Source: Candidatus Saccharimonas aalborgensis (GTDB taxonomy: Bacteria; Patescibacteriota; Saccharimonadia; Saccharimonadales; Saccharimonadaceae). From it: 32,000 bases of DNA. Shown one piece after another: positions 2,172-27,303 of the stretch. Under the pieces are notes generated by a model. The model saw nothing but the letters and a program-made list of their open reading frames with translations. It was not told the origin of the DNA and made no database searches. Position numbers and translations under genes: made by a program. The DNA lies in assembly GCF_000392435.1 (NCBI RefSeq), contig NC_021219.1, positions 960,001 through 992,000 on the forward strand, read 5' to 3'. The number at the start of each line of letters is the position of its first letter. Position 1 is the stretch's first letter.

Positions 2172-2180
2172 AAAAAGTAG

Positions 2181-4462: not shown

Positions 4463-4491
4463 TCCGGTGTGGTAAATACAAGCAAAAAATT

Positions 4492-4566: not shown

Positions 4567-4668
4567 CTACGAACACATATTGTAACAGAAAAGCCCCAAC
4601 CTCACTAGCTGAGATTTCCACAGATTCAAGAATGCTTAAAAATTAAGTCATATTTTTTGTACAATCTG

Positions 4669-4698
4669 TTGCAAAAGATACGACGCACAGCGTATACT
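4669..4698 (+). promoter_or_regulatory. candidate sigma70-type promoter of the glucan operon
   Basis: TTGCAA (4669-4674), 18-nt spacer, TATACT (4693-4698). Lies 64 nt upstream of the ATG at 4762. Confidence 0.4.
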
Positions 4699-4761
4699 GG
4701 TTATGAATACTTCTAATCAACACGAGAGGGGTACGTTAGGCAGGCCGTCTAATCTATAAAC

Positions 4762-9890: not shown

Positions 9891-10080
9891 CTTCGTTTCG
9901 ACCCAGAGATTTCTTTGTCTCGACGTAGGTGGCGTGCTTGCGGGCCTTTGGGTCGTATTTCTTGAGCGTTAGTTTATCGGGAGTATTTTGGGTATTTTTG
10001 CGTGTCACATACGTGCGATGACCCGTCAGGTCGCTGACGAGAGCAATGATCTTTCGCTTGGTATTCGTTTTCTTTGCCAT
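9871..10080 (-). CDS. rpmG: 50S ribosomal protein L33 (Cys-less form, C-terminal extension)
   Basis: [54 protein letters not shown] matches the L33 pattern. AAGAGGA lies upstream. Confidence 0.85.
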
Positions 10081-10150
10081 AAAATCCTCTTATAGAAACT
10101 GCTATTACAATTCAACTACCAATTTTAGCACTCAACAGAGAAAAAAGCAA

Positions 10151-10578
10151 CTAGAGAGGTATGTCGCTAGCAGAAAAAACTGCCTGACGCGTGATATTGT
10201 CGAGGTTTAGTTTTGTGAGATCGCGGGGGCTCACCCACTGAAATGCAGAATGTTCTTCACTCAGAGTTAGAACGAACCGTGCGGTGGTAAGCCGATACGT
10301 GAGACGAACAACATGGATATCTCTCTTGGTAACGAAAATATCCTGCGCGGCGATTAGCAATGGTATTTCGTCTGGTACTACTCCAATTTCTCGTGTAACT
10401 CTCTTTTGAGCGCTGTCTCGAGCGATTCGTCCACGTTGATCCGGCCCCCAGGAATATCCCATGTCTCGGCAATATCATGCTGATCGCTTTTTGCGCGTTG
10501 AAGAACCAGCGTATTGCCAGATTCGTCGGTTATAATAACTTTGACGCCAATTTGGAGTTGCATAGTAGCCCTGTTCAC
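10151..10578 (-). pseudogene. Nudix hydrolase interrupted by a 1-nt frameshift inside the Nudix box
   Basis: Two track ORFs, 10378-10578 and 10151-10462. Frame 1 reads GGRINVDESLETALKRE and stops. The -1 frame continues VTREIGVVPDE. Joined they give GX5EX7REVxREIGV. The total span of 428 nt is not a multiple of 3. Confidence 0.7.
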
Positions 10579-11069
10579 CGGTAATTTGTAAATACTAAGG
10601 GAAAATCAAAGTCGGCTGCGCGGAGTGTTGACATGACAGCTTGCAATTCATCTTTGCTTGCACTCGTACAGCGTACCGCCGGCCCCTGTATCTGCGTCCT
10701 AACTTTTGGGTGAGAGTCTTTGAGCAATTTTGTGATCTTTTTGGCATCATCTTGGCTCAGCCCATCGCGAAACAGTACATCTTTCCAAGCTCGTAAGTTT
10801 GCTTCAGTTACCTTGCCGCTGAGGTCGAGGACTTTGCTGGTCATTACGCGCTTGGCAAGCTGTTTACCGATCATATCAATGATCGTCTCGAGCTGCCACT
10901 CGTTGCTTCCTATGACCTTGAAGCCCTTTTTGTCAGTCAGCCACTCCACGGCAGCTGGTGTACCCTTAAAATCATATCGACTAGAAATCTCTCTCATGAC
11001 AAGTTGCTCGACATTGTTCATCTCGGCTTTATCGTACGTGGATTCGATATCAAAACTATAGTTCGCCAT
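10575..11069 (-). CDS. yajQ: YajQ-family nucleotide-binding protein (UPF0234)
   Basis: 164 aa. SFDIESTYDKAEMNNVEQLVMREISSRYDFKG ... IQGPAVRCTSASKDELQAV ... FTNYR follows the YajQ pattern along the full length. Confidence 0.85.
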   Translation of the reverse strand: MANYSFDIESTYDKAEMNNVEQLVMREISSRYDFKGTPAAVEWLTDKKGFKVIGSNEWQLETIIDMIGKQLAKRVMTSKVLDLSGKVTEANLRAWKDVLFRDGLSQDDAKKITKLLKDSHPKVRTQIQGPAVRCTSASKDELQAVMSTLRAADFDFPLVFTNYR

Positions 11070-11156
11070 TGATCCGCCTTATTCCTGCATACATTTGCAA
11101 CTCCAAATACCTATACCACGATAATATCATATGCGATGGTTTAAGCAGCAACTACT

Positions 11157-11567
11157 TTAGTCTGCCGACAATCGTGAGCAACCGTTTGTGTTGTCACTCC
11201 GCATTGCTTTTTCAATTGGTATCATTCTGCAGTGAATTTTCTCCATGCCGAGTAGTTTTGCTTTGCACATCCTGTGAAGTCCATCAAATGGTACTAGCTT
11301 ATTGACGCGTGGGTTTAGCCCCAGGTCGATTGGGTATGACAGATCAGCAGTTTCTATTCTTTTGAAATGGTCGGGGTCGAGCTCGGGATTAGCCATGACT
11401 TCGTTTGGCGTTAGCGGATGCTCATCAGTGCCAAACCAATCAACGTCCAACAGCCATTCAATTTGCGATAGTTCAATGTCTGTGACAGGAGCATCTATCT
11501 TCCAGATGGCCTTTTCGTTCCACTCAAACGGAAAGAAGTAGTCTTCTTGTTTTAATTTTGGCTTCAT
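11157..11567 (-). CDS. hypothetical protein with possible ParB/Srx-like motif
   Basis: 136 aa. LSYPIDL...LVPFDGLHRMCKAKLLGMEKIHCRMIP resembles the DGxHR core of ParB-like domains. Assignment is tentative. Confidence 0.4.
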   Translation of the reverse strand: MKPKLKQEDYFFPFEWNEKAIWKIDAPVTDIELSQIEWLLDVDWFGTDEHPLTPNEVMANPELDPDHFKRIETADLSYPIDLGLNPRVNKLVPFDGLHRMCKAKLLGMEKIHCRMIPIEKAMRSDNTNGCSRLSAD

Positions 11568-11606
11568 ACGCGCTAACCCGTTTCTTAATATGTGGGAAAT
11601 TCAATC

Positions 11607-11682
11607 TGGAGCCACGACTGGGATTTGAACCCAGGACCCCGTCCTTACCATGGACGTGCTCTACCAACTGAGCTATCGCGGC
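11607..11682 (-). tRNA. tRNA-Thr (anticodon GGU), CCA encoded
   Basis: Hand fold. Acceptor gccgcga/tcgtggc, anticodon arm cgtcc-ATGGTAA-ggacg, T arm ctggg-ttcaaat-cccag. Confidence 0.9.
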
Positions 11683-11806
11683 ATATTATTTGTCCTAAAA
11701 AAGTGTACCACTTATAGAGAGAAAGTTCCAGTATTGCTCGACTCTAGTTTGCATAATCTTGCGTTTCCAAGACACTTGTTTCGAATGCGCGGTACACCGT
11801 GGGGAG

Positions 11807-12460
11807 CTATTGACCGATAATACTAACTGATCGAGCAATGATAAGCGCCAGTGTCGTAACCGAGATGAGAGCTTGTGCACTCATAAGCAGTTTGGCTTGT
11901 CGGGTCATTGGTACCGTATCGGCAGAAGCAAAGTTGATGGCATTGGTTACAGATATGTAAAGATAATCTATAAACTGGGGGCGCCATGCTTGAAATATGT
12001 GTGAGTGTATCTGCTGCGGGAACAAAAAATCTTTGTCGTACCGCGACCATCGTTTACCTGAGAACCCGGGGCTATCTATCTCCCAATACCATAACGCAAA
12101 GACAATAATATTTGTCAAAAATATCGCGATTGCCGTACCGAGCAAACGATAGCCGACTAACCCAGAGTTAGTCACGAGTAGATGCAATATTGTGGCGATA
12201 GAACTGACATTTTCAACTGAAATCAGCCCGAGAAGTATAAACGATACTATTCGGTAGGGAGCCGTGGTTAGGAGAGATGGGCGGAAGATAGTGAGTGACA
12301 TCAGGGCGATGAACGTCAACTCAGTTAGCATGATGAGTGTATGAGGACTGTAAGCAGTATTACCATTCATAATCCAGATTGAGGACTGCAACCCAAGAGC
12401 CGCAACAAGGGCGCCAAATGCTACAAGTAGTTCAGGACGGGAAATATGAGGCACGGTCAT
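11807..12460 (-). CDS. integral membrane protein (DUF1345-like, about 6 TM)
   Basis: 217 aa with hydrophobic segments throughout. C-terminal YISVTNAINFASADTVPMT resembles a pore-loop/DUF1345 motif. Confidence 0.6.
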   Translation of the reverse strand: MTVPHISRPELLVAFGALVAALGLQSSIWIMNGNTAYSPHTLIMLTELTFIALMSLTIFRPSLLTTAPYRIVSFILLGLISVENVSSIATILHLLVTNSGLVGYRLLGTAIAIFLTNIIVFALWYWEIDSPGFSGKRWSRYDKDFLFPQQIHSHIFQAWRPQFIDYLYISVTNAINFASADTVPMTRQAKLLMSAQALISVTTLALIIARSVSIIGQ

Positions 12461-12466
12461 AATGCT

Positions 12467-12475
12467 AGTATAGCA
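12467..12475 (-). promoter_or_regulatory. extended -10 element placing the TSS at the ATG (possible leaderless mRNA)
   Basis: The - strand reads TGcTATACT, then agcatt, then ATG (12460). There are only 6 nt between the -10 and the start codon and no SD. Confidence 0.3.
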
Positions 12476-12525
12476 CTCGGTGCCTCTCTTCGCCGTACCA
12501 ATGGTTTGAGTTTTACTTCGCGGCT

Positions 12526-12565
12526 AAAATAGTAGCCCTATCCATGAGGGATAAGGCTACTATTT
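12526..12565 (-). terminator. intrinsic terminator directly after tRNA-Tyr
   Basis: A 17-21 bp hairpin (aaaatagtagcc-ctatcc / ggataa-ggctactatttt). The single non-Watson-Crick pair is G-U only on the - strand RNA. Followed by UUUU. Confidence 0.6.
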
Positions 12566-12650
12566 TGGTACCGGAGGTAGGACTCGAACCTACGAAGGCT
12601 TGCGCCGAGAGATTTACAGTCTCTTGTCATTGCCGCTAGACGACTCCGGC
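12566..12650 (-). tRNA. tRNA-Tyr (anticodon GUA), long variable arm, CCA encoded
   Basis: Hand fold. Anticodon arm agaga-CTGTAAA-tctct, variable arm cggcgcaagccttc, T arm gtagg-ttcgagt-cctac, G1-U72 in the acceptor. Confidence 0.85.
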
Positions 12651-12665
12651 ATGCCGCTGTCGCTC

Positions 12666-12737
12666 ATGAGACAAACCGGAGGTTTTTCTCATCGCGCCGG
12701 GCGCGAAATAAATTCGCGTCTCGGGCTGCTCTTTTCC
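12666..12737 (-). repeat. copy 1 of a ~73-nt structured intergenic element (tRNA-Thr/tRNA-Tyr spacer)
   Basis: Shares atgagacaaa..ggtttttctcatcgcgc and ggctgctcttttcc with 27205-27278. The internal hairpin has a different stem sequence but a near-identical loop. Confidence 0.7.
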
Positions 12738-12774
12738 TAAATGCACACGCAACGCATAGGTTATGTGCACATCA

Positions 12775-12851
12775 TGGAGCCGCTTCTCGGACTTGAACCG
12801 AGGACCTACTGTTTACAAAACAGTTGCTCTAACCAACTGAGCTAAAGCGGC
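12775..12851 (-). tRNA. tRNA-Thr (anticodon UGU), CCA encoded
   Basis: Hand fold. Acceptor gccgctt/aagcggc, anticodon arm actgt-TTTGTAA-acagt, T arm ctcgg-ttcaagt-ccgag. Confidence 0.9.
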
Positions 12852-12860
12852 ACATACACC

Positions 12861-12890
12861 ATTTTACCAGAGGTTAGTAGTGTAAATCAA
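12861..12890 (-). promoter_or_regulatory. promoter of the tRNA-Thr/tRNA-Tyr unit
   Basis: The - strand reads TTGATT (12890-12885), 18-nt spacer, TAAAAT (12866-12861). The tRNA 5' end lies 9 nt downstream. Confidence 0.55.
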
Positions 12891-12911
12891 CAAAACCATT
12901 GTCAGTTATGA

Positions 12912-13568
12912 TCACATCACCACTTTTCGTACTTGCTGTACTGATTTTGCAGGTGGGTTTTTGCTTGCAATGGCTTTTTGGATTTTATCACGTAGTTCAA
13001 CTGACTTTTCGGTTTCACCTAAGCGATCGTAGGCATCTGCAAGGATATGGTATGACTGAATACTGGGTTCAATATCCGCTGCGCGTTCAAGCGACTCGAT
13101 CATTTTTTTATCATTCCCCAGCTTCTCCTGTACTTTCGCGTAGGCGATATAACGTGAGGCTAGACTATCCTCCATAGCCAGCGCTTGCTCAAAGGCAAGT
13201 GCCGCCTTGTCGTAGTGTGCTGTTTCGTAGTATATCAAGCCAACATTATGCAGGCTGCTTGCACTTGGCTCGAGACTTTGTGCGATCTCAAAACATTCGA
13301 TCGCATCGGAATACGCTTGCTGTTTGGCGTAGAGGATGCCGAGACGGTTGTAGGCGGTGGCATTTCGTTCGTCGACACGTAAAATAGTCAACAACGCTTT
13401 TTCGGCTCTAAGATATTTTCGCTCCTTTAGTGATTCCTGCGCGATGTCCCACAGCCGTTCAAGTTTAATAGACAACTTTTGAGGGATGTCCGCTGCTGCC
13501 TCTATAACAGTTTGCTGGCGAGACACAGTCCAGATTCCGAGGATAAGTATAAGAAGTAGCCCTAGCAT
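12912..13568 (-). CDS. membrane-anchored TPR-repeat protein
   Basis: 218 aa. N-terminal TM segment MLGLLLILILGIWTV. Repeated TPR-like units (AYNRLGILYAKQQAYSDAIECFEIAQSLEP, etc.). Confidence 0.7.
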   Translation of the reverse strand: MLGLLLILILGIWTVSRQQTVIEAAADIPQKLSIKLERLWDIAQESLKERKYLRAEKALLTILRVDERNATAYNRLGILYAKQQAYSDAIECFEIAQSLEPSASSLHNVGLIYYETAHYDKAALAFEQALAMEDSLASRYIAYAKVQEKLGNDKKMIESLERAADIEPSIQSYHILADAYDRLGETEKSVELRDKIQKAIASKNPPAKSVQQVRKVVM

Positions 13569-13580
13569 ATCTTACATGTA

Positions 13581-14411
13581 TTATACCACGAGTGAGAGGA
13601 GGTGGATACGGACGTTCCCGTTGGCGGAGATGGCACTATGCGCGGCAGCATACTGCTCGCAGCGCTCGATCAGTTCTTTTGTAGGTGCCGATGACAACGA
13701 TCGTTTCATGATGATAAGTGCGCTTTGGAGCAGAGTGAGGGCTGCAGTTCTATCGGTCGCATAATTATGGATCAACACTACTTTTTCGTACGCAGACCCC
13801 TGTAATAGTATACGGGCATCACCTATATTTTTTGCTTGAACAGAAAAGTACGCCGTATCCTCGACAAGCCTGGTGAGTTCACCTGGAAGACCCTCGGCCA
13901 AAAAAAGCATTTTCTGTATTGTCGACTCGTCTGTTATACCGAGAGAATTCAACAGCTGACGCGACTGAGTGCGGTCAATGGGTAGTACTGTTACCTGTTG
14001 GACGCGTGACAAAACTGTGGCAAGTAACAGCTGAGGCTTGTGTGCGAGCAAGATGAACTTGATGTGCTCGTTTGGTTCCTCAAGTAGTTTTAGGAAGGCA
14101 TTTTGCGCAGAATGGTTCATTGTATCAGCTTGATCAAGTATATATACCTGGTCATGGGGCGCGATGGTGCGTGTTTGACGATAGAGCTCGCGAATTTGTT
14201 CGACGCGAATGACACCTTTTTCGTTGTCAGGTTGACCGTCGACTGTGGTCGGTGAGATGACACCCGCAATAGCTGTACCGGCGATGCCTCGGGCGGCCGT
14301 CATAAGGCCTACTCCTGTTGGGCCCACCAGGAGGAGCCCATGAGGAGTGGTTTGCTTTAGGCGGCGAATTGCCGCCACTGTCGCGCTATTATAGACGTGA
14401 TGAGAGCTCAT
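13581..14411 (-). CDS. holB: DNA polymerase III delta-prime-like clamp-loader subunit
   Basis: 276 aa. LLLVGPTGVGLMTAAR (degenerate P-loop), ILDQADTMNHSAQNAFLKLLEEP and LLATVLSRV follow the delta-prime/AAA+ clamp-loader pattern. Confidence 0.6.
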   Translation of the reverse strand: MSSHHVYNSATVAAIRRLKQTTPHGLLLVGPTGVGLMTAARGIAGTAIAGVISPTTVDGQPDNEKGVIRVEQIRELYRQTRTIAPHDQVYILDQADTMNHSAQNAFLKLLEEPNEHIKFILLAHKPQLLLATVLSRVQQVTVLPIDRTQSRQLLNSLGITDESTIQKMLFLAEGLPGELTRLVEDTAYFSVQAKNIGDARILLQGSAYEKVVLIHNYATDRTAALTLLQSALIIMKRSLSSAPTKELIERCEQYAAAHSAISANGNVRIHLLSLVV

Positions 14412-15570
14412 GAGGTATCTCTGGAAATAGTTGTATAAACTCGTCAGGAATTGGTGCGGTGAATGTTTGCCGGGTACTCGCCCTTGGCGTAATCTCTAGC
14501 TGATACGCGTGCAAAAAGAGGCGGGTGTTTGATTTGCCATATATCCTATCGCCATGGATGGGTGTTCCTAGATGAGCCATATGGACGCGCAACTGGTGGG
14601 TACGTCCCGTGCTCGGATGGAGTAGTACTAGAGACTTTCCTGCTTTCGTTGCGATAACCTCATAGTCAGTACGTGCAGGTTTGCCATTGGGATCAACCCG
14701 AAAGGTGCTGGGGCTCGAAGGATTACGGCCGATCGGAAGATCAATAGTAGCCTTGGGATGCTTCGGTACTCCGTCCACAATAGCCAAGTAGTGCTTGTTT
14801 GCTTTTCTGTCAGAAAACTGACGCTTGAGACGCTGAAACGACTCTAGTGTCCTTGCGCCAACAATAATGCCACTTGTGTCTCTGTCGAGCCGATGGACGA
14901 TACCGGGTCGATTTGTCTCGAGTCCAACTGAGCTATATCGACGGAAAAAGTCAGCAACAGTAAACTCGTCAGACAGTGCACCCTTGGCGTGGGTGAGCAC
15001 GCCTGAAGGCTTGTTGACGACAATGATACCATCGTCGATATACATGATAGGAAGTTCTCGAGCACTGAAGTCGCTCGCTTCAGGAAGAGACACGGCGATG
15101 TAATCTGCTTCACTCACCTCTTGACGCACATTTTTTGCTGGTATTGAGTTGACAGTGACTGCACCGGCCTTGATATGTTTCTGCCAGGTACTTCGACTCG
15201 TGTCTGGGAAGCGTTCAGCGAGGATGATGTCGAGACGTTTCTTATCGCTTTCTTGACGAAACAAATAGACGTCTTTGCCCTTAAATGGCAACCCAAACGT
15301 TGTCAGCTCGCTCACGGCATTTTCAAGTAGCTGACCCTGAATGTTGCTATCCACGATTTTGATCTGATCTACGACGTATTGCTCGTTATCCTCGGCCGTG
15401 TCATCAAACAACACATAGTAGCGAGTTTTTGCGAAACGAAACGAAACAAGCTGGTTTATCGGACGAGGATGGTTTGACCGAAGTTGATCGATTTCTCGTG
15501 GTACGTTCGTCTCACCTGCAATATTAAACCGACGCAAAATTGCTAAGAGGTCTGATGAAGTTACCTTCAT
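14389..15570 (-). CDS. RluA-family pseudouridine synthase (RluD-like) with ~110-aa N-terminal extension
   Basis: 393 aa. S4-like segment RLDIILAERF...AGAVTVN and catalytic motif HRLDRDTSGIIV. Confidence 0.8.
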   Translation of the reverse strand: MKVTSSDLLAILRRFNIAGETNVPREIDQLRSNHPRPINQLVSFRFAKTRYYVLFDDTAEDNEQYVVDQIKIVDSNIQGQLLENAVSELTTFGLPFKGKDVYLFRQESDKKRLDIILAERFPDTSRSTWQKHIKAGAVTVNSIPAKNVRQEVSEADYIAVSLPEASDFSARELPIMYIDDGIIVVNKPSGVLTHAKGALSDEFTVADFFRRYSSVGLETNRPGIVHRLDRDTSGIIVGARTLESFQRLKRQFSDRKANKHYLAIVDGVPKHPKATIDLPIGRNPSSPSTFRVDPNGKPARTDYEVIATKAGKSLVLLHPSTGRTHQLRVHMAHLGTPIHGDRIYGKSNTRLFLHAYQLEITPRASTRQTFTAPIPDEFIQLFPEIPHELSSRL

Positions 15571-16601
15571 TATGCTCTCAAGCCTATGGCTCGCTGAACA
15601 CGGAGTAGCGTGCTATTTGCAACGTCATTCATAGCTGCCTCGCTGGTTTCTAGCTTGTGGAGGATCAGCTGGTCGTCAACGCTCTGTAAGCGTTCCTGAA
15701 AACTGCGGAGGAATTCTGCCATTTCATCTGCCACAACTTGCTTGAAGTCCCCGTATCGCTGGCTCCCCTTGAACTCGGCTTCTACTTCTAGGGGTGATGT
15801 ATTACGGAGAAGGGCCAGGATGTCGATCAAGTTTGCAATCCCTGGTTGGTTGACTTTGTCGTACTGAATATTGGCCTTATCATCAGTGGTGGCGCCCATG
15901 ATTTTTTTACGCGCAACCTCAGGATCATCACTGAGAAAGATCACGCCCTTGCCTGTTTCGTCGCTTTTGCTCATTTTTTTGCTCGGATCGAGCAGGTCTT
16001 TAATACGCAACCCCTGATCTTTACCAAAGAACGCGTGCTGTCGAACAACAGGCTCGGGTACCGTAAATACTTCACCAAAGCGATTGTTCATACGCTCGGC
16101 GATATCACGGGTAAACTCAAGATGTTGGGTTTGGTCATCACCAACGGGCACATAGGCGGCATTGTAAAGCAAAATATCGCACGCCATAAGTACTGGATAA
16201 TTAAATAATCCTACACTTACCTGATCTTCACCTGACTTGTATGATTTTTCTTTGTATTGGATCATGCGACCCATCTCACCCATGCCAGTGAAGCAGTCTG
16301 CTATCCATGTCAACTCACTGTGAGCTGGCACATAGCTCTGACGATACAGGTGGATCGCATCATTATCGAGTGGTAGTCCGGCTGCGACAAACACACGGGC
16401 GTTATTCATGATGCTTTCATTGAGAGTCGAGTGGTCTATTGGGGTTGTGAAACTATGAAGATCGGGGATAAAAAGATTGATATCAAACTCGTCTGAACGA
16501 GTCTTTGCCATATCGATGATCGGGAGCATCGCTCCGAAATAGTTGCCGATGTGGAGGTCGTTGTTGGCACGAATACCAGTGAGAATAACTTGCTTTGTCA
16601 T
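15570..16601 (-). CDS. trpS: tryptophan--tRNA ligase
   Basis: 343 aa. Class I signatures: HIGH-like TGIRANNDLHIGNYFG, and KMSKS. Overall TrpRS-like length and motifs (GDDQTQHLE). Confidence 0.9.
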   Translation of the reverse strand: MTKQVILTGIRANNDLHIGNYFGAMLPIIDMAKTRSDEFDINLFIPDLHSFTTPIDHSTLNESIMNNARVFVAAGLPLDNDAIHLYRQSYVPAHSELTWIADCFTGMGEMGRMIQYKEKSYKSGEDQVSVGLFNYPVLMACDILLYNAAYVPVGDDQTQHLEFTRDIAERMNNRFGEVFTVPEPVVRQHAFFGKDQGLRIKDLLDPSKKMSKSDETGKGVIFLSDDPEVARKKIMGATTDDKANIQYDKVNQPGIANLIDILALLRNTSPLEVEAEFKGSQRYGDFKQVVADEMAEFLRSFQERLQSVDDQLILHKLETSEAAMNDVANSTLLRVQRAIGLRA

Positions 16602-16618
16602 ATGTTACTCCTATTGTA

Positions 16619-17332
16619 TCACTTATCGATTGTTATTTTCTCTGGCGCAGAGGCCTTAAAACCCAGATAGTTGGTCTGTTTTTTATAAGAATTCTCGCCA
16701 GTCATGATGGGGACAAATCCGAGCTTTTTGTTCATCTTGAAGTTAACGAACCCATCGGCTTCTCTAGTCGTGACGTCCTTTTTGTAGATCTTGTCGACCA
16801 TATGGTAGACATCCTTTGTGACAGCACCTCGAGTGCCTCGGACAAAACGACGCAAATCATTAGTGATATGGTTTAGGAGTTCGAGCGTAATATGATCGTT
16901 TGGCACCTCGTAGCCGACGACATTGGTTACTGCGGAGGCAATATCGTTAAGGGACTTTACTTCGAGGACCGTCTTGATGTGGCTGGCTCTGAGGAAGCGT
17001 CGAAGCGCAGTGTCCTCAAGATTACCGACAATAAGACAGTTCGGCTGCTTGCATGTCGTTGTATGCATATCGAGAATGATATCAGGCTTAGTGGTATCGA
17101 TATAGCGTAGTATCTCTCTCGCGCGCTGCTCCTCGTAGCGCGCGCCGTTACTTTGATAGCTTCGGTTGAGGTCGGACTGAATATAGCGCTTGTGTGCGGC
17201 ATAGGCGCGCGGGTTACCGATCACAAAGTCGATTGATTCAAGGAGCGCTGAATGTTGCGCAAGCAAGAATTGATATAGTTTGATACCAAGTAACTCGTTA
17301 CCGTGTGTGGCTGCAATTATCAGTAACTTCAT
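16619..17332 (-). CDS. succinylglutamate desuccinylase/aspartoacylase (AstE/AspA) family zinc hydrolase
   Basis: 237 aa. IIAATHGNELLG, GNPRAY...SDLNRSY and ILDMHTTT match the family's metal and substrate motifs. Confidence 0.65.
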   Translation of the reverse strand: MKLLIIAATHGNELLGIKLYQFLLAQHSALLESIDFVIGNPRAYAAHKRYIQSDLNRSYQSNGARYEEQRAREILRYIDTTKPDIILDMHTTTCKQPNCLIVGNLEDTALRRFLRASHIKTVLEVKSLNDIASAVTNVVGYEVPNDHITLELLNHITNDLRRFVRGTRGAVTKDVYHMVDKIYKKDVTTREADGFVNFKMNKKLGFVPIMTGENSYKKQTNYLGFKASAPEKITIDK

Positions 17333-17953
17333 CTCTCATACTCCTCTTTGACCCGAGCAGCCACTACGAGCGCATGACGCACGCTCTGGAGTGCTGGGAA
17401 TTGTTCTTTTAATGGTACTCCACCTTTTGTCGCGGGTCTATCTGCAGGATCATTGCCTTGAAACAACCCTGCTTCGCTATATCGGTTCATATGATATGTT
17501 ACATTGCCTCGTAGCGATGCGTGGGGTTGAGCCGCGGCAAGTGCCATCAATTCATGATCATCATCGAGCGGCGCAAGTGATGAGGTCACATGACGCATCA
17601 TACGCAGTATCGCGGGGTTTCGCGTGTAGGTTGTCAGATAGAGTGGTTTTTCATTTGCAACGAGTCGTGTTAGTAAGTCAGTTGCAATCCCGAGTCCTTG
17701 ATACTCTGGGTGAACAACTCGCCCCGCAAGCTCAATCGCTTTACCGCCAAAGATGTCTCCGGGCCATCGAAAATGCGATGAGCTGGTTTGAGTCATATAG
17801 TGTGGCGATAAAATCAGACGAATAGATATGACTAATAGTGTCTTTAAGCATCGCGGGAGTATCACCTTGACCAAAGCCCCGACCCGCCAAGTGTGCAATA
17901 GCAACATGTTCTTTATCTGATAATTGATTCGAGTTTTTTTGTACGTATTCCAT
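17329..17953 (-). pseudogene. GNAT acetyltransferase split by a frameshift
   Basis: The N-terminal half is ORF 17741-17953 (...NQLIAFSMARR). The acetyl-CoA motif half, GKAIELAGRVVHPEYQGLGIATDLL, lies in the next frame within ORF 17329-17907. The frames can be joined at the GGG/CCC run at 17761-17763. Confidence 0.65.
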
Positions 17954-17979
17954 GATAGTTTATTCCTTTCATACCGATT

Positions 17980-18000
17980 AAAAAAGTCGCCAGTGGCGAC
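17980..18000 (-). terminator. intrinsic terminator in the leader of the GNAT operon (attenuator)
   Basis: The - strand reads GTCGCC-ACT-GGCGAC followed by TTTTTT. The downstream ATG (17953) follows 26 nt after the T-run. Confidence 0.6.
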
Positions 18001-18024
18001 CTACAATTTTTTTGAAATAATTAA

Positions 18025-18084
18025 CTAGAGATCGCCACGTGAAGTGTCGATATACCAATATGAGCTGTTAGTAATATGACTCAT
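18025..18084 (-). promoter_or_regulatory. candidate 19-codon leader ORF (MSHITNSSYWYIDTSRGDL)
   Basis: The ATG lies 6 nt after the -10 hexamer, so it would be leaderless. The last codons cover GTGGCGA, which can pair with the terminator 5' arm. Confidence 0.25.
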
Positions 18085-18090
18085 ACTTTC

Positions 18091-18119
18091 ATTATACTAC
18101 TTCATTAAGCTTGTGTCAA
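18091..18119 (-). promoter_or_regulatory. consensus sigma70 promoter
   Basis: The - strand reads TTGACA (18119-18114), 17-nt spacer, TATAAT (18096-18091). Both hexamers match consensus exactly. Confidence 0.65.
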
Positions 18120-18129
18120 TAGCCACCAA

Positions 18130-18158
18130 AGAACCACCCTCAGAGGTGGTTCTTTTTT
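18130..18158 (-). terminator. hairpin terminator after rpsI (bidirectional shape)
   Basis: agaaccacc-ctcaga-ggtggttct, a 9-bp stem. Flanked by an A-run and a T-run, 18 nt downstream of the rpsI stop. The U-tail on the - strand is short (UUUGG). Confidence 0.5.
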
Positions 18159-18175
18159 GATAAAACAAGAGACTA

Positions 18176-18577
18176 TTAGCGTTTTGAGTATTGCTCGCGT
18201 TTGCGGGCACTGCGAAGGCCGTATTTCTTGCGTTCCTTTTCGCGAGGATCGCGCTTCATGAAGCCGGCTTTTTTGAGAACACTACGGAGATCGGGTGCAC
18301 CGACAGTGATCGCTTTTGCGATGGCAACTTTGATCGCGTCAACTTGGCCGCTGAGGCCGCCGCCGCTTACTTTGATGGTCACGTCGAAGTCCTGTTGTTT
18401 ACCGGCGACCGCGAGTGGATCGGTTACTTCTGCCATCATTGCTTTGTTGCCGCTCAGGTACTCAAGAGCTGGTTTATCGTTGATAACGATAGCTCCTTTG
18501 CCCTTTACAAGCCGTGCGCGCGCTGTTGCGCTTTTACGGCGACCGAGGCCATAGTCATATTTCTTGGTTTCAGCCAT
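18176..18577 (-). CDS. rpsI: 30S ribosomal protein S9
   Basis: 133 aa ending ...RKREQYSKR. Start overlaps the rplM stop (TAATG). Confidence 0.95.
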   Translation of the reverse strand: MAETKKYDYGLGRRKSATARARLVKGKGAIVINDKPALEYLSGNKAMMAEVTDPLAVAGKQQDFDVTIKVSGGGLSGQVDAIKVAIAKAITVGAPDLRSVLKKAGFMKRDPREKERKKYGLRSARKREQYSKR

Positions 18578-19008
18578 TATCGTACCTCAACTTTCTCTGG
18601 TTTTTGCGCCTCATGGGTGTGCTCGCTTCCACTAAACACACGCAGTCGCGCCATACGTTCAGGAGAGAGCTTATTCTTGGGGAGCATGCCACGGACGGCA
18701 TTCTCGATAATCCTCTCGGGAAACTTTTCACGAACTTCCTTGAGCTGTGCATCTTTGATACCACCGGGGAAACCACTGTGACGATAGTAAATCTTATCAG
18801 TCTCTTTTTCGCCAGTGACAACAGTGTCTTTGGCGTTGATGACGATTACGTAGTCGCCACCGTCAACGTGGGGCGTATAGGTGGGTTTGTACTTGCCAAT
18901 GAGGTACTTTGCCACTTCTGTTGCAACACGTCCCAATGGTGCAGACGTTGCATCGATCAGAATCCAGCGCCTCGTGACATCGGCAGGTTTTTGGATAAAG
19001 GTTTTCAT
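18577..19008 (-). CDS. rplM: 50S ribosomal protein L13
   Basis: 143 aa. MKTFIQKPADVTRRWILIDA... is the canonical L13 N-terminus. Confidence 0.95.
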   Translation of the reverse strand: MKTFIQKPADVTRRWILIDATSAPLGRVATEVAKYLIGKYKPTYTPHVDGGDYVIVINAKDTVVTGEKETDKIYYRHSGFPGGIKDAQLKEVREKFPERIIENAVRGMLPKNKLSPERMARLRVFSGSEHTHEAQKPEKVEVR

Positions 19009-19404
19009 TTATTTTGCCTCCTTTTCAGGTTTTGGCATGGCTTTGAGCGTGTCAACAAACTCGATTGAGGCCATTTGTGTGCCGTCGCCGACGCGAATGC
19101 GCGTGCGGGAGACGCGGACGTGACCACTTGTGCGACCGCTTAACTGTGGTGCAATTTGGTCTACCAATTTGCTAGCAGCAGCTTGTGTGCTGAGACCAGC
19201 AATAACTTGACGTCGATTCGCCAGATCACCACGCTTTGCTTTGGTGATGAGTTTTTCGATATAGCGTACGAGTTCCTTGGCCTTGGGGAGGGTCGTTTCG
19301 ATCTTTTCCTCCATCACCAAACTTGTGGCGAGGCCGCGGATAAGCGCACGACGCTGGTCAGTTTCTCTGGCCAACTTGCGTCCTTTGTATCCGTGTCGAT
19401 GCAT
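19009..19404 (-). CDS. rplQ: 50S ribosomal protein L17
   Basis: 131 aa. MHRHGYKGRKLARETDQRRALIRGLATSL. Confidence 0.95.
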   Translation of the reverse strand: MHRHGYKGRKLARETDQRRALIRGLATSLVMEEKIETTLPKAKELVRYIEKLITKAKRGDLANRRQVIAGLSTQAAASKLVDQIAPQLSGRTSGHVRVSRTRIRVGDGTQMASIEFVDTLKAMPKPEKEAK

Positions 19405-21978: not shown

Positions 21979-22203
21979 TTAATCACGTGCGCGGAAAACG
22001 ATTCTGCCCTTTGTGAGATCATAAGGGGTTAGCTCGACTTCCACGATATCGCCCGGTACCAGACGGATATAATGCTTGCGCATCTTGCCGCTAATATGAG
22101 CGATGATACTTAGGCCGTTTTCCAATTCCACCCTAAACTGAGTATTAGGCAGTGCTTCCACCACCTTGCCTCGCAGTTTAATAACTTCTTTGGTACTCGC
22201 CAT
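21979..22203 (-). CDS. infA: translation initiation factor IF-1
   Basis: 74 aa. [60 protein letters not shown]. Confidence 0.95.
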
Positions 22204-22219
22204 AGATATACAGCATTTT

Positions 22220-22248
22220 ATTATACGGTATCATATGACAAAAGTAAA
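22220..22248 (-). promoter_or_regulatory. candidate promoter for infA-rpmJ-rpsM...
   Basis: The - strand reads TTTACT (22248-22243), 17-nt spacer, TATAAT (22225-22220). Lies 16 nt upstream of the infA ATG. Confidence 0.5.
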
Positions 22249-22305
22249 CAGATTTAACAGAGAATCGCGGTATAGTTAGTCTACCGCAACTAAATTGATA
22301 GTTTT

Positions 22306-22333
22306 ATTGTAGCGAATATCGTTCGTGAGTCAA
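22306..22333 (-). promoter_or_regulatory. second candidate - strand promoter, divergent from the 22353 promoter
   Basis: The - strand reads TTGACT (22333-22328), 16-nt spacer, TACAAT (22311-22306). Its -35 box and the + strand -35 box form the inverted repeat agtcaagt...acttgact. Confidence 0.4.
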
Positions 22334-22352
22334 GTCAAAAGAGTGAGGATAC

Positions 22353-22381
22353 TTGACTTTTATATAAATATAGTGTAAAAT
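22353..22381 (+). promoter_or_regulatory. near-consensus promoter of G+C-rich unit A
   Basis: TTGACT (22353-22358), 17-nt spacer, TAAAAT (22376-22381), in AT-rich DNA. Confidence 0.6.
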
Positions 22382-22434
22382 AGTACACGAGTCCATTGTA
22401 GTTTGACAACCCCAACCCCCTGAAAGGATACCTG

Positions 22435-22785
22435 ATGGGAAAGAGATGGCCTGGCATGGGTCGCCTGCGCGCAAAGCGCAAAGCGACTGCCCAGCTCGCC
22501 GCTGCTAAGGCAGCGGCGGCGGTGAGGGCTCAGGAGGTCGTGAACGACCTCCTGTATCCCCACCAACGGGAGCACGGTACTTCGCTTCTCGAGCGGCTGC
22601 ACCCAGAGCCGCTCGACGTGTCGGATCACTCCGGCACGCCCAACCCTCGACGTCGTGTGCGCCATCGGGCAGACCGTCGGCGACGGCTGCCCGAGGCGCT
22701 TGTCACCGAGCGGCCCTGCGCCGCTCGCGGCCACCACCGTGGCTGCGAGTGTGCTGACTACGTCTGGGAGCCGCTTCACGCATGA
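22435..22785 (+). CDS. orphan G+C-rich ORF A (116 aa, Arg/Ala-rich); coding status uncertain
   Basis: AAAGGA lies 7 nt before the ATG. Hand-counted GC1/GC2/GC3 is about 79/55/72%. The codon-aligned antisense ORF (22360-22779) is also open. I recognise no motif. Confidence 0.4.
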   Translation: MGKRWPGMGRLRAKRKATAQLAAAKAAAAVRAQEVVNDLLYPHQREHGTSLLERLHPEPLDVSDHSGTPNPRRRVRHRADRRRRLPEALVTERPCAARGHHRGCECADYVWEPLHA

Positions 22786-22813
22786 AGCGTGCTCCCGACA
22801 CCTACAATGGATT

Positions 22814-22850
22814 GGCCCTTACTGCACTCGCGGTAGGGGCCTTTCCTTTG
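22814..22850 (+). terminator. intrinsic terminator of unit A, convergent on the secY 3' end
   Basis: ggcccttac-N10-gtaggggcc (9 bp including one G-U) followed by tttcctttg. Ends 18 nt before the secY stop. Confidence 0.55.
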
Positions 22851-22867
22851 CAGCTACTTTCGAAATA

Positions 22868-24277
22868 TTATTTGTAATCGTCGTACGTCACCATGAGGGC
22901 GCGTGAGTTGACCTGTCGCAGAGTTTCGAGCCCCACTGTCACGACGATGAGAAGACCCGTGCCTCCAATCGCCAAATTGGCAGCGTTGAGCCCTAGTTTG
23001 ACAAAGACATACTCAATGATGAATGGCATCACGGAGATAAAGCCGAGAGCAATAGAACCAAACAGAATTAAGCGATTGACCGTCCGTCCCAGATATTTTT
23101 CGGTCTGAATCCCCGGACGCACTCCCTCGATGAAGCCACCTTGCTTTTGCAGGTTTTCGGCAATCTCATTTGAATTAAAGACGATGCCCGTATAGAAGTA
23201 CGTAAACAATATTACGAGGAGGAAATAGGCAGCCGGATAGATAAATACGCCCAGATCACCACTTGCAAAGGACTGGGCGTTTGGTGCCTGGAACCACTTG
23301 ATAAGATCGGCGCTCAGCTGAGTATACGAGGGGTTATTGGTTGCTTTGAGCACTTGACCTGCAAAGGCAGGGAGGCTGAGAAACGCGACCGCAAAAATCA
23401 CCGGGATAACACCCGCAGCAATGAGCTTGACGGGGAGGATGCTTTTGATACCGCCGTAACTCGTATTGCCAGCGACACGTTTGGCGTAGTTGATAGTGAT
23501 GATACGCTGAGCTTCATTGATTTTAACGAGGAAATACAATATAAAGAGCGATAAAAGACCGATAACAAGTGCTACCCAAAACGCCGTCGGGCTCACCGGT
23601 AGGTCAAACCAGCCAAAGACGCTTAACTTTCCTGCCGTTGTGTCCAATAGCGAGGCGATGACCGTACTGAGGGTTGCTGGTAGCTGACTGATGATACCGG
23701 CAAAAATAATGAGTGAAATACCATTACCAATACCTTGCTCAGTGATGAGCTCTCCTAGCCACATGAGGAGAATGGAACCGGCGGTCATAGCAGTGACGGC
23801 TACTATCCACTCTGTTGGTGTGGTCGTGACAGTACCGGCAGTACTGCCTGCAAGAACTGACTGGCGCAGAATATAGATAATTGCAACAGACTGAATGACT
23901 GCGAGTGGTACGGAGATGATACGCGTCCACTGGTTTATCTTGCGACGGCCAGATTCACCATCCTTATGGAGTTCTTCTAGCTTTGGGATTGCTTTTGTGA
24001 GCAACTGGGTGATGACGCTGGCAGTGATAAACGGACTCATTCCGACCAGGACGATAGACAACTGGCTGAGTGCACCACCGCTCATAAGGTTGAGGAATCC
24101 GCCGAAGTCACTTGAGCCGATCACCGTATCAATGATACTCTTTAGCTTACTCGGTTCAGCAATGGGCACAGGGATATGCGACATGAAACGAAACGCGACG
24201 ATCAGTCCAAAGACGATCAAGAGGCGTTTTTGCATATCACGGTTTTTGAGTGATCGAAGGATAATTTTCCAATTCAT
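22868..24277 (-). CDS. secY: preprotein translocase subunit SecY
   Basis: 469 aa, 10-TM pattern. LNLMSGGALSQLSIVLVGMSPFITASVITQLL and GELITEQGIGNGISLIIFAGI. Confidence 0.95.
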   Translation of the reverse strand: MNWKIILRSLKNRDMQKRLLIVFGLIVAFRFMSHIPVPIAEPSKLKSIIDTVIGSSDFGGFLNLMSGGALSQLSIVLVGMSPFITASVITQLLTKAIPKLEELHKDGESGRRKINQWTRIISVPLAVIQSVAIIYILRQSVLAGSTAGTVTTTPTEWIVAVTAMTAGSILLMWLGELITEQGIGNGISLIIFAGIISQLPATLSTVIASLLDTTAGKLSVFGWFDLPVSPTAFWVALVIGLLSLFILYFLVKINEAQRIITINYAKRVAGNTSYGGIKSILPVKLIAAGVIPVIFAVAFLSLPAFAGQVLKATNNPSYTQLSADLIKWFQAPNAQSFASGDLGVFIYPAAYFLLVILFTYFYTGIVFNSNEIAENLQKQGGFIEGVRPGIQTEKYLGRTVNRLILFGSIALGFISVMPFIIEYVFVKLGLNAANLAIGGTGLLIVVTVGLETLRQVNSRALMVTYDDYK

Positions 24278-24548: not shown

Positions 24549-25004
24549 TTGCCCAAGAAGGTCAAGAATCTGTTCGGTAAGACATTCGGCTACGAAGGAG
24601 GTGTGGTCAACTTTGACGGACATATGGGCATGTTCGTCGGCGACGACAACGAACCCTTCGCCGGACGTGAGGGTGAGCAGGTGGTTCCGTACCCCATTGT
24701 TCCTCCTGCCGGGGAATCGTCGGCTCGTCGGGCACTCGTCGAGCTGGTGAACCAGACGCTTGCGTCGAGGTACGGTTCCAAGTTGGATGGAATCATCGTC
24801 AGCCCACGGATGGCACGAAACCTCTTCCTCGAGGGGCTGATCACGCCGGTCCATCTGGCTGCGGCCATCGAAGAGGCATTCGAGGGAGACCTCGTTCTCG
24901 TCATCCCGGATGTCAACATCGCTGGGCACCTCCTGTACATCGAGGTCGACAGCAACGCCGCGGTGAACTCATTCGCCATCGACCGAAAGGGGTATCTGAT
25001 CTGA
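24549..25004 (+). CDS. orphan G+C-rich ORF B (151 aa), unknown function
   Basis: TTG start with GGAAGGAG (24534-24541) 7 nt upstream. Third codon positions are mostly G/C. Balanced, globular-looking composition. I recognise no motif. Confidence 0.6.
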   Translation: MPKKVKNLFGKTFGYEGGVVNFDGHMGMFVGDDNEPFAGREGEQVVPYPIVPPAGESSARRALVELVNQTLASRYGSKLDGIIVSPRMARNLFLEGLITPVHLAAAIEEAFEGDLVLVIPDVNIAGHLLYIEVDSNAAVNSFAIDRKGYLI

Positions 25005-25134: not shown

Positions 25135-25569
25135 CTACGCAGCTTGTTCGGAAGCGCGACGAAACACGAGCACTGTATCTGCTTGTGCATCTCGATCTTT
25201 GCGCACAATGGGTAGGGGTAGCTCACCAGCGATCTCTTTGAGTGCTCCCGCAAGAAATAAATCTAAGTCCATTGTTCCTGAAGCAATCTGACGCCACCCT
25301 GTCTCGGAGACAACAACTTTCCCATCGAGGAAGTCTATAAGTTTCTCTGGCAAAAAGCCCTCTATTGCGCCGATAGTCTCGTCGCTCACCGTCCAACCTG
25401 CATCTCTGGCCAGATGCTCTAGGCGCCCCACCTGTGCGCCAATGAACTGCCTGCGGAGATTTCCGTACCCCTCGCGAATGGCACGTGCTAGTCGCTCACG
25501 ACCAGCTTGCTCGTAGTTGCGCCGATGTTCATTCCAATCGATCGCTATTTCGGGTACGCGTGGCATCAT
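25135..25569 (-). CDS. orphan 144-aa protein between rplO and secY
   Basis: GGAGGACAG lies directly upstream of ATGATG. It sits downstream of the rplO terminator. I recognise no motif. Confidence 0.6.
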   Translation of the reverse strand: MMPRVPEIAIDWNEHRRNYEQAGRERLARAIREGYGNLRRQFIGAQVGRLEHLARDAGWTVSDETIGAIEGFLPEKLIDFLDGKVVVSETGWRQIASGTMDLDLFLAGALKEIAGELPLPIVRKDRDAQADTVLVFRRASEQAA

Positions 25570-25680: not shown

Positions 25681-26160
25681 CTATTTTTTATCTGTAGCTT
25701 CAGCTTCTTTGGCTGATTTTTGGATGGGTGTTGCGACTTTATCGAAACTACCACCTGCCTTTTCTATAGCAGCCACAACGTTCCTTGATGCGCCCTGAGT
25801 CTTGAGAGTGATCTTGCTCCCCAGTTCACCACGAGCGATTACCTTGACGGTATGGAACGGTGTCGCGATAAGATTTGCTTCGTACAGAGCATAGTTATCG
25901 ACGATACCCTTGAGTCCTTCAAGCCGATCAAGGTAGACAACCTGAGCTGGTGTTCGCAAACTTTTGAATCCTCGTGATTTTGGCACCGCAGTAGCGATGC
26001 CGTTTTGGCCACCCTGAAACATCGGACGCAGCTTCTTGCCAGTACGAGCATTCTGACCTTTTGTTCCGCGACCTGCTGTCTTGCCACCACCGGCAGCAAT
26101 TCCGCGGCCGACGCGCTTGCGATCCTTGTGCGTACTCATCTGGAGATCATTGTATTTCAT
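25681..26160 (-). CDS. rplO: 50S ribosomal protein L15
   Basis: 159 aa. RVGRGIAAGGGKTAGRGTKGQNAR. Start overlaps the rpsE stop (TAATG). Confidence 0.95.
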   Translation of the reverse strand: MKYNDLQMSTHKDRKRVGRGIAAGGGKTAGRGTKGQNARTGKKLRPMFQGGQNGIATAVPKSRGFKSLRTPAQVVYLDRLEGLKGIVDNYALYEANLIATPFHTVKVIARGELGSKITLKTQGASRNVVAAIEKAGGSFDKVATPIQKSAKEAEATDKK

Positions 26161-27195: not shown

Positions 27196-27303
27196 AGTCT
27201 GTGTATGAGACAAATCTACGGTTTTTCTCATCGCGCGGCGCACAGGAGTAAATCCTGATGCTCCGGCTGCTCTTTTCCCTTGGGTTATAGCTAGATCAGA
27301 CAT
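27175..27303 (-). CDS. 42-codon ORF exactly filling the rplF-rplR spacer
   Basis: My translation is MSDLAITQGKRAAGASGFTPVRRAMRKTVDLSHTQTGKAGKK. The ATG overlaps the rplF stop (TAATG) and the stop overlaps the rplR ATG (TAATG). Not in the track (under 60 aa). Confidence 0.4.
   Translation of the reverse strand: MSDLAITQGKRAAGASGFTPVRRAMRKTVDLSHTQTGKAGKK
27205..27278 (-). repeat. copy 2 of the ~73-nt structured element (rplF-rplR spacer)
   Basis: Aligns with 12666-12737. Flanks are conserved and the hairpin stems differ in a compensatory way. Confidence 0.7.

Follow-up and report, generated by a model that had tools for sequence, protein, structure and literature searches.

A clade-specific orphan gene with a predicted end-closed, selectively folded mRNA in a ribosomal-protein operon of a Saccharibacterium

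The spc/alpha ribosomal-protein operon of a Saccharibacterium (TM7) carries, between secY and infA, a small antisense gene whose mRNA is predicted to fold over most of its length and to close end to end. We describe this gene, ORF A, in a 32,000-nucleotide stretch of Candidatus Saccharimonas aalborgensis DNA (contig NC_021219.1, positions 960,001 to 992,000), which we call the window and to which all coordinates refer unless a locus name precedes them. On balance, we favor the explanation that the unit is a clade-specific, self-contained gene that encodes a basic orphan protein, and that its mRNA has been selected to stay folded, as both armor and brake. An initial annotation, made from the sequence of the window alone, had offered a structured RNA, an odd open reading frame (ORF) or both; comparison with homologues points to both, with selection on the protein and a fold that is maintained. 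What is new is a structured, end-closed small-protein mRNA in an orphan gene of a candidate phyla radiation (CPR) bacterium.

The predicted transcript is folded far beyond chance

The minimum free energy (MFE) of the predicted transcript and its immediate 3' flank (22388-22855) is -266.3 kcal/mol, against -193.5 +/- 7.4 kcal/mol for dinucleotide-shuffled sequences (z = -9.83); the minus strand of the same segment gives z = -9.06. Shuffled controls, which the initial annotation had proposed for comparison, thus do not approach the native folding energy. Its impression that stems are commoner here than expected was also correct: four perfect hairpins of at least 8 bp (loops of 3-8 nucleotides) occur, half of all such hairpins in the window, compared with 0.08 +/- 0.28 in shuffles (maximum 2 in 1,000). 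In a sliding-window scan of the window the insert ranked first in over-folding on either strand, and about 70% of the nucleotides of the coding sequence (CDS) lie in predicted hairpins of 8-16 bp. The second most over-folded stretch of the window is a long hairpin between A and T tracts at 12524-12568, beside a tRNA gene, and is probably a bidirectional terminator.

All nine hairpins listed initially were found in place, both by a base-by-base check and in the MFE structure (Table 1). Hairpin 2 encodes a poly-Ala stretch. Hairpin 7 has two alternative forms, and the 16-bp one is built on a core at 22724-22749 with 11 bp, including one G·U, and the loop CACC. The two ends of the predicted transcript are joined by a helix as well. 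The initial observation that the 5' end, TCCATTGTAG (22392-22401), is complementary to a segment just before the terminator (22802-22811) is exact, and the helix extends to 12 bp across a 400-nucleotide span, with partition-function pair probabilities of 0.84-1.00 and at least 0.95 for most pairs.

The fold is preserved in diverged homologues

We aligned the eight distinct DNA versions of the element, including that of the window (alignment A2). All eight fold at z -8.4 to -9.8, among them the most diverged copy, L081 (z = -9.4), whose CDS is 70% identical with a synonymous divergence (dS) of about 0.9. The native coding sequences are 15-39 kcal/mol more stable than synonymous-codon shuffles that preserve both the protein and its codon composition (z -2.4 to -6.5). 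Across the alignment, 96.2% of the pair cells of the consensus structure are paired. Pairs changed on both sides number 11, compared with 3.0 +/- 1.4 in column shuffles (none of 500 reached 11) and 1-4 in slid controls. Within L081, 12 of 138 pairs are changed on both sides where about 4 are expected (Fisher p = 2e-5), and 9 of the 12 are still paired.

The placement of substitutions gives the same picture. When the L081 substitutions were re-placed at random within their codon-position class, the MFE fell to -195 +/- 7 kcal/mol against the real -244 (z = -6.7), and placement within the same 12-codon block gave about -198 (z = -6.3); for L001 the corresponding z values were -4.5 and -3.0. Stepwise intermediates are also seen, with U-A passing through C·A (in three sequences) to C-G, and C-G through C·A to U-A. 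Judged from these sequence comparisons, the fold appears to be preserved beyond what the protein sequence dictates.

Individual helices differ in their fate. The closing helix is 99% paired across the eight sequences, with one outer pair broken in L081, and its three variable pairs stay paired through wobble-compatible states only (U-A/U·G, G·U/A-U and C-G/U·G). The terminator stem is 100% paired, helix 15 (hairpin 7) 98.4%, with one compensatory C-G to U-A change, and helix 16 (hairpin 8) 96.4%. Hairpin 2 shows one C-G to U-A double change in L081, and in the same copy another local hairpin stands in the place of hairpin 6. What is conserved is dense local pairing together with the closing helix and the terminator, not a precise architecture with conserved loops.

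The folded species is probably the plus-strand RNA

In eight of eight sequences the plus strand folds better than the minus strand, by 4-16 kcal/mol. This advantage is due to conserved G·U pairs and vanishes when G·U is forbidden. Given the G·U advantage, the wobble-compatible variation and the position of promoter, Shine-Dalgarno (SD) sequence and terminator on the plus strand, the folded molecule is most readily taken to be the plus-strand RNA. The same dependence on G·U argues against a cruciform or a function as single-stranded DNA (ssDNA); the latter, an origin or a transfer site, had been entertained initially and finds no support here.

ORF A encodes a basic orphan protein

The SD sequence, the ATG, the ORF and the stop codon are kept in all eight sequences. 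Insertions or deletions within ORF A (9 nucleotides in L001 and 3 in L081) are in frame; those in the leader and the 3' untranslated region are 1-4 nucleotides long. Read in the sense frame, the alignment gives a median ratio of non-synonymous to synonymous divergence (dN/dS, Nei-Gojobori) of 0.32, and dN reaches 0.26. Four other frames have medians of 1.05-1.54; antisense frame -1 gives 0.43, yet has two to five stop codons in every sequence. Variable columns are distributed 39/39/68 over the three codon positions. The initial annotation had coupled two expectations for a protein-coding reading, protein-like substitution and stems that are not maintained. The first holds and the second does not, since the stems are kept. 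Its hand-counted codon-position G+C (about 79/55/72%) agrees with the computed 0.79/0.55/0.72. As it had reported, no stop codon interrupts the codon-aligned antisense frame in the window; frames +1 and +2 are open there too, and openness alone is therefore uninformative. A 139-amino-acid antisense ORF was rejected as an actual gene (dN/dS about 1.05, stop codons in four of eight sequences) and has no match in Pfam. These patterns indicate that ORF A is a real, orphan protein-coding gene under protein-level purifying selection.

Different parts of the protein are constrained to different degrees. For the last 24 residues (RPCAARGHHRGCECADYVWEPLHA) the ratio of non-synonymous to synonymous differences (pN/pS) lies at 0-0.15 in three of four comparisons, the exception being L082 with 0.48, and synonymous sites in this segment do vary; in the middle of the protein the ratio is 0.40-0.56. 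The layout is an N-terminal helix, an Arg-rich middle and a nearly invariant C-terminal C-x4-H-x3-C-x-C...H, a Cys/His motif that, from its residues, may bind metal. The product has an isoelectric point of 10.7, a grand average of hydropathicity (GRAVY) of -0.89 and no transmembrane (TM) segment (maximum Kyte-Doolittle value over 19 residues, 0.68). AlphaFold2, run on the eight-sequence alignment, reached a predicted local distance difference test (pLDDT) score of 61.6 and was confident only for the helix at residues 8-40; the middle is predicted to be disordered. One example of a predicted tryptic peptide is AQEVVNDLLYPHQR.

A clear match of ORF A to a known protein family, which the initial annotation had named as possible counter-evidence, did not turn up. 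Pfam, NCBIfam, PHROGs, PADLOC and PDB gave no match at E <= 0.1 to 1. A word-indexed search of 5.8 billion proteins returned only seven related clusters, with 66-91% identity to ORF A, and a profile search of 1.84 billion representatives found only ORF A's own cluster. The zinc-binding anti-sigma (ZAS) motif, which has the spacing H-x3-C-x2-C, does not fit, as ORF A has H100-x3-C104-x-C106 (GHHRGCEC).

Transcription signals and leader

A consensus scan recovered both the promoter and the terminator of the initial annotation. Both hexamers of the plus-strand promoter are invariant in eight of eight homologues (mean pairwise identity of the segment, 0.93), and transcription from it would give a transcript of about 460 nucleotides ending at the intrinsic terminator. 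Right after the terminator stem comes the T-rich tail TTTCCTTTGC. Identity of the terminator is 0.96, and its variation is G·U-compatible on the plus strand only; on the minus strand the stem has mismatches and there is no U tract. Overall, promoter, leader and terminator are more conserved (0.90-0.96) than the CDS (0.85). Bases of the leader (22402-22434) have a mean unpaired probability of 0.64, those of the CDS one of 0.30; the SD sequence, conserved like the ATG in homologues, is only weakly sequestered. Leader identity between the window and L081 is 0.90. Mimicry of an anti-SD sequence by the loop of hairpin 5 (GGAUCACUCC) was ruled out because that loop varies among homologues.

A promoter-like site on the minus strand overlaps the ORF A promoter (Table 1). 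No homologue departs from its -35 hexamer, and L089 and L081, which differ in the -10, retain TAnnnT. Transcription from this site is predicted to start near 22373, which is upstream of the mRNA 5' end, and would run away from the mRNA. From consensus matches only, the overlapping opposite promoters may form a bidirectional promoter that fires towards infA, a layout that could explain the invariant TTGACAA in the leader. A terminator scan found no minus-strand terminator-like site between secY and the insert, nor one in relatives with an empty site. Because of this, secY read-through RNA is probably fully complementary to the ORF A mRNA.

Table 1. Coordinates of the ORF A unit, its predicted RNA elements and the flanking genes (window positions)
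Feature	Coordinates	Strand	Description
ORF A	22435-22785	+	116 amino acids; intact in 8/8 distinct homologues
Inserted unit	about 22340-22866, ~520 bp	+	Between infA promoter and secY stop codon; G+C 0.63-0.67
Sigma-70-type promoter TTGACT-17-TAAAAT	22353-22381	+	10/12 consensus matches; predicted 5' end near 22388
Promoter-like site TTGTCA-18-TACTAT	22380-22409	-	9/12 matches; -10 overlaps -10 of ORF A promoter
5' leader	22388-22434	+	SD AAAGGA at 22423-22428; only largely unpaired part of predicted transcript
Closing helix, 5' arm	22390-22401	+	AGTCCATTGTAG; pairs with 22802-22813
Hairpin 1	22460-22487	+	5+5 bp; helices 5 and 6 of the alignment show stepwise U-A to C·A to C-G
Hairpin 2	22495-22521	+	8 bp at 22498-22517; 9 perfect pairs at 22497-22518; 11 pairs in MFE structure
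Hairpin 3	22531-22554	+	11-bp codon-aligned palindrome encoding QEVV-N-DLL; largely lost in L081
Hairpin 4	22589-22616	+	10 bp; arms CGAGCGGC/GCCGCTCG shared with hairpin at 22707-22727
Hairpin 5	22617-22638	+	9 bp including one G·U; loop UCAC; 98.6% paired across homologues
Hairpin 6	22659-22699	+	Core 22665-22694, 13 bp (8+5, A bulge); up to 18 pairs in MFE structure
Hairpin 7 region	22707-22753	+	Alternatives: 8 bp at 22707-22727, or 16-bp stem
Hairpin 8	22762-22799	+	Core 22766-22796, 13 bp and one bulge; spans TGA at 22783-22785
Closing helix, 3' arm	22802-22813	+	CTACAATGGATT; directly abuts terminator hairpin
Intrinsic terminator	22814-22850	+	12-bp G+C-rich stem at 22814-22841, then UUUCCUUUG
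infA	21979-22203	-	Pfam eIF-1a, E = 2.6e-26
Ancestral infA-operon promoter TTGACT-16-TACAAT	22306-22333	-	Consensus scan; just outside insert; same promoter right after secY stop in empty-site relatives
secY	22868-24277	-	Pfam SecY, E = 3.3e-91

A single-copy insert limited to one clade

SecY of the window shares 97% identity with its counterpart in a Ca. Saccharimonas aalborgensis metagenome-assembled genome (L001). The host operon lies on the minus strand in the order rplO (25681-26160), secY, infA, rpsM, rpsK, rpsD, rpoA and rplQ, and the ORF A unit, antisense to it, occupies most of a 665-nucleotide secY-infA spacer. With a G+C content of 0.67 against about 0.49 in its surroundings, the unit is as G+C-rich as first described. 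In empty-site relatives such as L006, L005 and L012 the secY stop codon leads directly to the minus-strand infA promoter (TTGACC-17-TACAAT); from this adjacency in short-gap relatives we place the insert at about 22340-22860. No target-site duplication is evident around its ends.

Among 80 Saccharibacteria secY loci, whose secY-infA gaps range from 67 to 2,682 nucleotides, blastn detected a homologous unit in only one, L001. Each genome fragment with the element has one copy, always placed between infA and secY and always oriented alike. A scan of metagenome and viral contigs for an invariant 18-mer of the leader gave 25 matches, 23 of them due to chance and two at the same locus, and blastn of phage and plasmid collections found nothing similar. 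Given that all copies sit at this locus and none has relatives elsewhere, the element exists as a single copy and does not extend beyond the Ca. S. aalborgensis clade. No reverse transcriptase, integrase, transposase or relaxase was found among 25 window ORFs scanned against Pfam, which cover most of 1473-19404 and the stretch from infA to rplO; within that scope, the initial statement that no reverse transcriptase is nearby stands.

Several features of the neighborhood were recorded. In one strain group (L082:1868-2833, also L083 and L085) an insertion sequence (IS) with an rve-family integrase of 321 amino acids lies between infA and the ORF A promoter, so this junction tolerates insertions. 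infA shows 100% nucleotide identity in five strains compared with the window (L001, L082, L086, L089 and L092), in which secY differs by 2-8% and ORF A by 7-14%, a pattern that suggests extreme constraint or recent recombination. Two further ORFs of 151 and 144 amino acids lie between secY and rplO, at 24549-25004 (+) and 25135-25569 (-). One of them is likewise antisense to the operon, the 151-residue ORF is kept in related strains (L082-L084), and neither has a match in Pfam, PHROGs, PADLOC or NCBIfam.

Other structured spacers and an unrelated motif

Locus L008, from a related Saccharimonas, has a non-homologous unit in the corresponding place, likewise antisense (5486-5890, minus strand of the locus). 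This unit comprises a perfect TTGACA-17-TATAAT promoter, a GTG-start Arg-rich ORF of 134 amino acids ending in CGMPAWECQQYEWV (C-terminal pattern C...EC..Y.W) and a terminator, and the folding of the spacer gives z = -3.8. We rejected it as a member of the ORF A family, as the similarity is not significant (pairwise E = 0.1), and it has no homologues of its own. About 25 oral Nanosynbacter-type loci similar to L022 (5392-5705) share a conserved 300-nucleotide secY-infA spacer (z = -6.2) apparently made of stacked G+C-rich hairpins between A and T tracts, which by their layout are probably bidirectional terminators.

A motif of about 75 nucleotides occurs twice on the minus strand of the window, at 12666-12740 between two tRNA genes and at 27205-27280 between L6-like and L18-like ribosomal protein genes, and again at L001:1056-1087 and L116:1320-1351. 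It contains a conserved GGAAAAGAGCAGCC..GAG, followed by a hairpin that covaries between the two window copies (CGCGAA/TTCGCG versus CAGGA/TCCTG) and by another hairpin of GCGCGATGAGAAAAACC, a loop and TTTGTCTCAT. It has no match in Rfam and may be an undescribed small RNA or regulatory motif.

Comparison with known systems

At gathering thresholds, Rfam recognizes only four tRNAs in the whole window. At E <= 10 its best hit in 22200-22900 is a miRNA model with 26 bits against a threshold of 105. In line with the initial failure to match RNase P, tmRNA, 6S, group II or retron architecture, no other family of Rfam reached its threshold, among them RNase P, tmRNA, 6S, group II intron, retron msr/msd, hok/sok, OLE, GOLLD, HEARO, ROOL and raiA.

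The closest architecture is that of the type I toxin mRNAs of the hok/sok type and of Helicobacter pylori aapA1. These are stable mRNAs of about 400 nucleotides with their own promoter and terminator, folded almost throughout. The very 5' end of these mRNAs folds back onto the 3' end (fold-back inhibition), and mRNA structure restrains translation of the small protein, a small hydrophobic membrane peptide of about 60 amino acids or less with a TM helix. The ORF A unit shares the 5'-3' fold-back, here the 12-bp helix, the size of about 400 nucleotides, the extensive folding and a small ORF that would be throttled. It differs in that its product has 116 residues and is hydrophilic and basic without a TM segment, its SD sequence is weakly sequestered, and neither hok/sok nor any other toxin-antitoxin RNA of Rfam matches it. 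No dedicated cis-antisense RNA gene is evident over the leader: the minus-strand promoter-like site would start transcription upstream of the mRNA. Read-through from secY could supply antisense RNA.

Staphylococcus aureus RNAIII (514 nucleotides) is similar in size, in its many hairpins, in its joined ends and in its embedded ORF: it encodes delta-hemolysin in a translated small ORF, consists of successive hairpins with long-range helices that join its ends, and is very stable. RNAIII acts via conserved C-rich loops that pair with targets. In the ORF A unit, by contrast, the loops vary (UAAG/UCAG/ACGA and UCAC/CGAC/UGAC) while stems and overall fold are kept, the ORF fills 75% of the RNA and is under purifying selection, and there is no sequence or covariance-model similarity. 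Palindromic, hairpin-forming DNA is also found in the Rickettsia palindromic elements (RPE), which lie inside translated sequence, and in the repetitive extragenic palindromes and bacterial interspersed mosaic elements (REP/BIME) of operon spacers, whose RNA hairpins can stabilize transcripts. These, like miniature inverted-repeat transposable elements (MITE), are dispersed multi-copy families with a consensus unit, usually accompanied by target-site duplications. The ORF A unit, by contrast, is single-copy, its hairpins are mostly unrelated with one arm pair duplicated, and it has its own promoter, SD sequence, ORF and terminator. Finally, its narrow clade, fast evolution (dN/dS about 0.3) and disordered middle are those of orphan small-protein genes, but such genes normally lack an mRNA fold at z of about -9 maintained by compensatory change.

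Alternative explanations

If the RNA came first, the closed multi-hairpin molecule would be the main product (a regulatory RNA, a sponge for proteins or RNase III, or a scaffold), with ORF A secondary or recent, in a dual-function arrangement like that of RNAIII. The greater conservation of the non-coding promoter, leader and terminator than of the CDS, the joined ends typical of stable RNAs, the persistence of the fold at dS of about 0.9 and the poorly constrained protein middle (pN/pS 0.4-0.56) are all in keeping with it, and the codon-aligned palindromes suggest that stems dictate part of the peptide. We nevertheless consider it unlikely, as the loops are not conserved and offer no obvious target-pairing sequences, Rfam holds no relative, and purifying selection on the protein is clear, with a C-terminal motif conserved while its synonymous sites vary. 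Less probable still is a fold without function, in which self-complementary SNS/GCN-rich codons (for Ala, Arg, Glu and Leu) produce the hairpins as a by-product and template-switch ("quasipalindrome") mutation, by converting both arms at once, keeps them perfect. Indeed, the poly-Ala and QEVV/DLL codons are intrinsically palindromic, the codon-aligned antisense phase accounts for 51 of 99 CDS pairs, double changes mostly lead straight from one Watson-Crick pair to another, single-sided changes look neutral, and four of six frames are open, as composition alone predicts. This mechanism does not account for synonymous-codon shuffles that fold 15-39 kcal/mol worse, for the z of -8.4 to -9.8 against dinucleotide shuffles, for the stepwise intermediates or for the new hairpins that replace lost ones in L081, and conserved G·U pairs with a strand advantage are unexpected of a process at the DNA level.

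The minus strand deserves separate consideration, since it too folds (z = -9.1), the site lies inside the operon with no minus-strand terminator after secY, and other Saccharibacteria secY-infA spacers are also structured (z down to -6.2). The insert might thus be a REP/BIME-like cluster in the secY-to-infA read-through RNA that stabilizes the 3' end of the secY mRNA or provides a point of RNase III processing or attenuation between the operon halves. We regard this as improbable: it leaves unexplained the invariant plus-strand promoter, SD sequence, ATG and terminator and the protein-level selection, the plus strand folds better in eight of eight sequences through G·U pairs, the terminator stem is mismatched on the minus strand, and the element, unlike REP, is single-copy. 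An element acting as DNA, either a MITE or other remnant of a mobile element bounded by 10-bp inverted repeats, or a hairpin-built site of ssDNA replication origin, transfer or recombination, seems highly improbable. It would draw on the perfect 10-bp inverted repeat with arms 400 bp apart, the foreign-looking composition and the apparent insertion hot spot (gaps of 67-2,682 nucleotides, the IS in L082 and unrelated inserts in other lineages). Against this, the element is always a single copy at the same locus with no evident target-site duplication around the insert ends, neither transposase, reverse transcriptase nor relaxase was found among the 25 Pfam-scanned ORFs, and the phage and plasmid collections contain no similar DNA. 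Furthermore, the inverted repeats vary by G·U-compatible changes, and promoter and terminator lie outside them.

The explanation that we favor, a protein-coding gene with a selected mRNA fold, also has evidence to contend with. Single-sided stem changes look neutral, with 21 to G·U, 17 to A·C and 15 others (the comparison of G·U with A·C counts has no discriminating power), and 13 of 23 single changes in L081 break a pair, so that selection would act on overall foldedness rather than on each pair. L081 has lost or replaced several hairpins and carries others at shifted positions. With only eight related sequences and most double changes on one branch, the alignment is too small to give the covariation a significance of R-scape grade. 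Synonymous sites are not globally frozen, as dS of ORF A is not lower than that of secY. As a test for such freezing, comparison with the flanking genes is uninformative: infA does not differ among five strains, and secY dS exceeds that of ORF A in some cases and falls below it in others, probably owing to recombination. The protein has no homologue outside its own cluster in the 1.84 billion representatives and no confident fold. Finally, our account of the transcript and of its ends, translation and half-life consists of predictions, and we infer the purposes of the fold, namely stability, throttled translation and insulation from antisense RNA.

A proposed role for the fold

In the scheme that we favor, the mRNA of about 460 nucleotides would be translated into the very basic 116-residue orphan protein. 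The 12-bp helix would join its 5' and 3' ends and stack on the terminator hairpin, leaving the leader, with the SD sequence and AUG, as the only open part of the molecule. Paired ends would block end-dependent exonucleases and the double-stranded interior would withstand single-strand-specific nucleases, while the fold would slow ribosomes and kinetically prevent annealing of the mRNA to complementary secY read-through RNA. As with hok-type mRNAs, the message would be long-lived and only weakly translated.

A more specific version would make the unit a non-membrane module resembling type I systems in an ultra-small CPR bacterium, in which an armored, end-closed mRNA encodes a basic Cys/His protein and the antagonist is read-through from the ribosomal-protein operon rather than a dedicated small RNA. 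The protein would then be a growth arrester or a nucleic-acid binder, possibly one that binds its own hairpins. We think it improbable that the module goes this far; if it does, expression of ORF A would be inverse to ribosomal-protein transcription, and the unit would serve as a growth-rate sensor. A related possibility is that ORF A was born de novo from a pre-existing structured RNA.

If the fold is a compositional or mutational by-product, an ordinary orphan gene remains. As the data stand, nearly every nucleotide of the element appears to be under two constraints, that of a protein under purifying selection and that of an RNA fold kept by compensatory change, and a 520-bp insert within a core ribosomal-protein operon of a genome-reduced Saccharibacterium is unlikely to be free baggage. 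If the fold controls the lifetime of the mRNA or shields it from antisense RNA, the hok-type logic of a structured, end-closed and throttled mRNA would extend to a non-membrane protein and to CPR bacteria. The element is also a compact natural test bed for the co-evolution of an orphan gene and its RNA structure.

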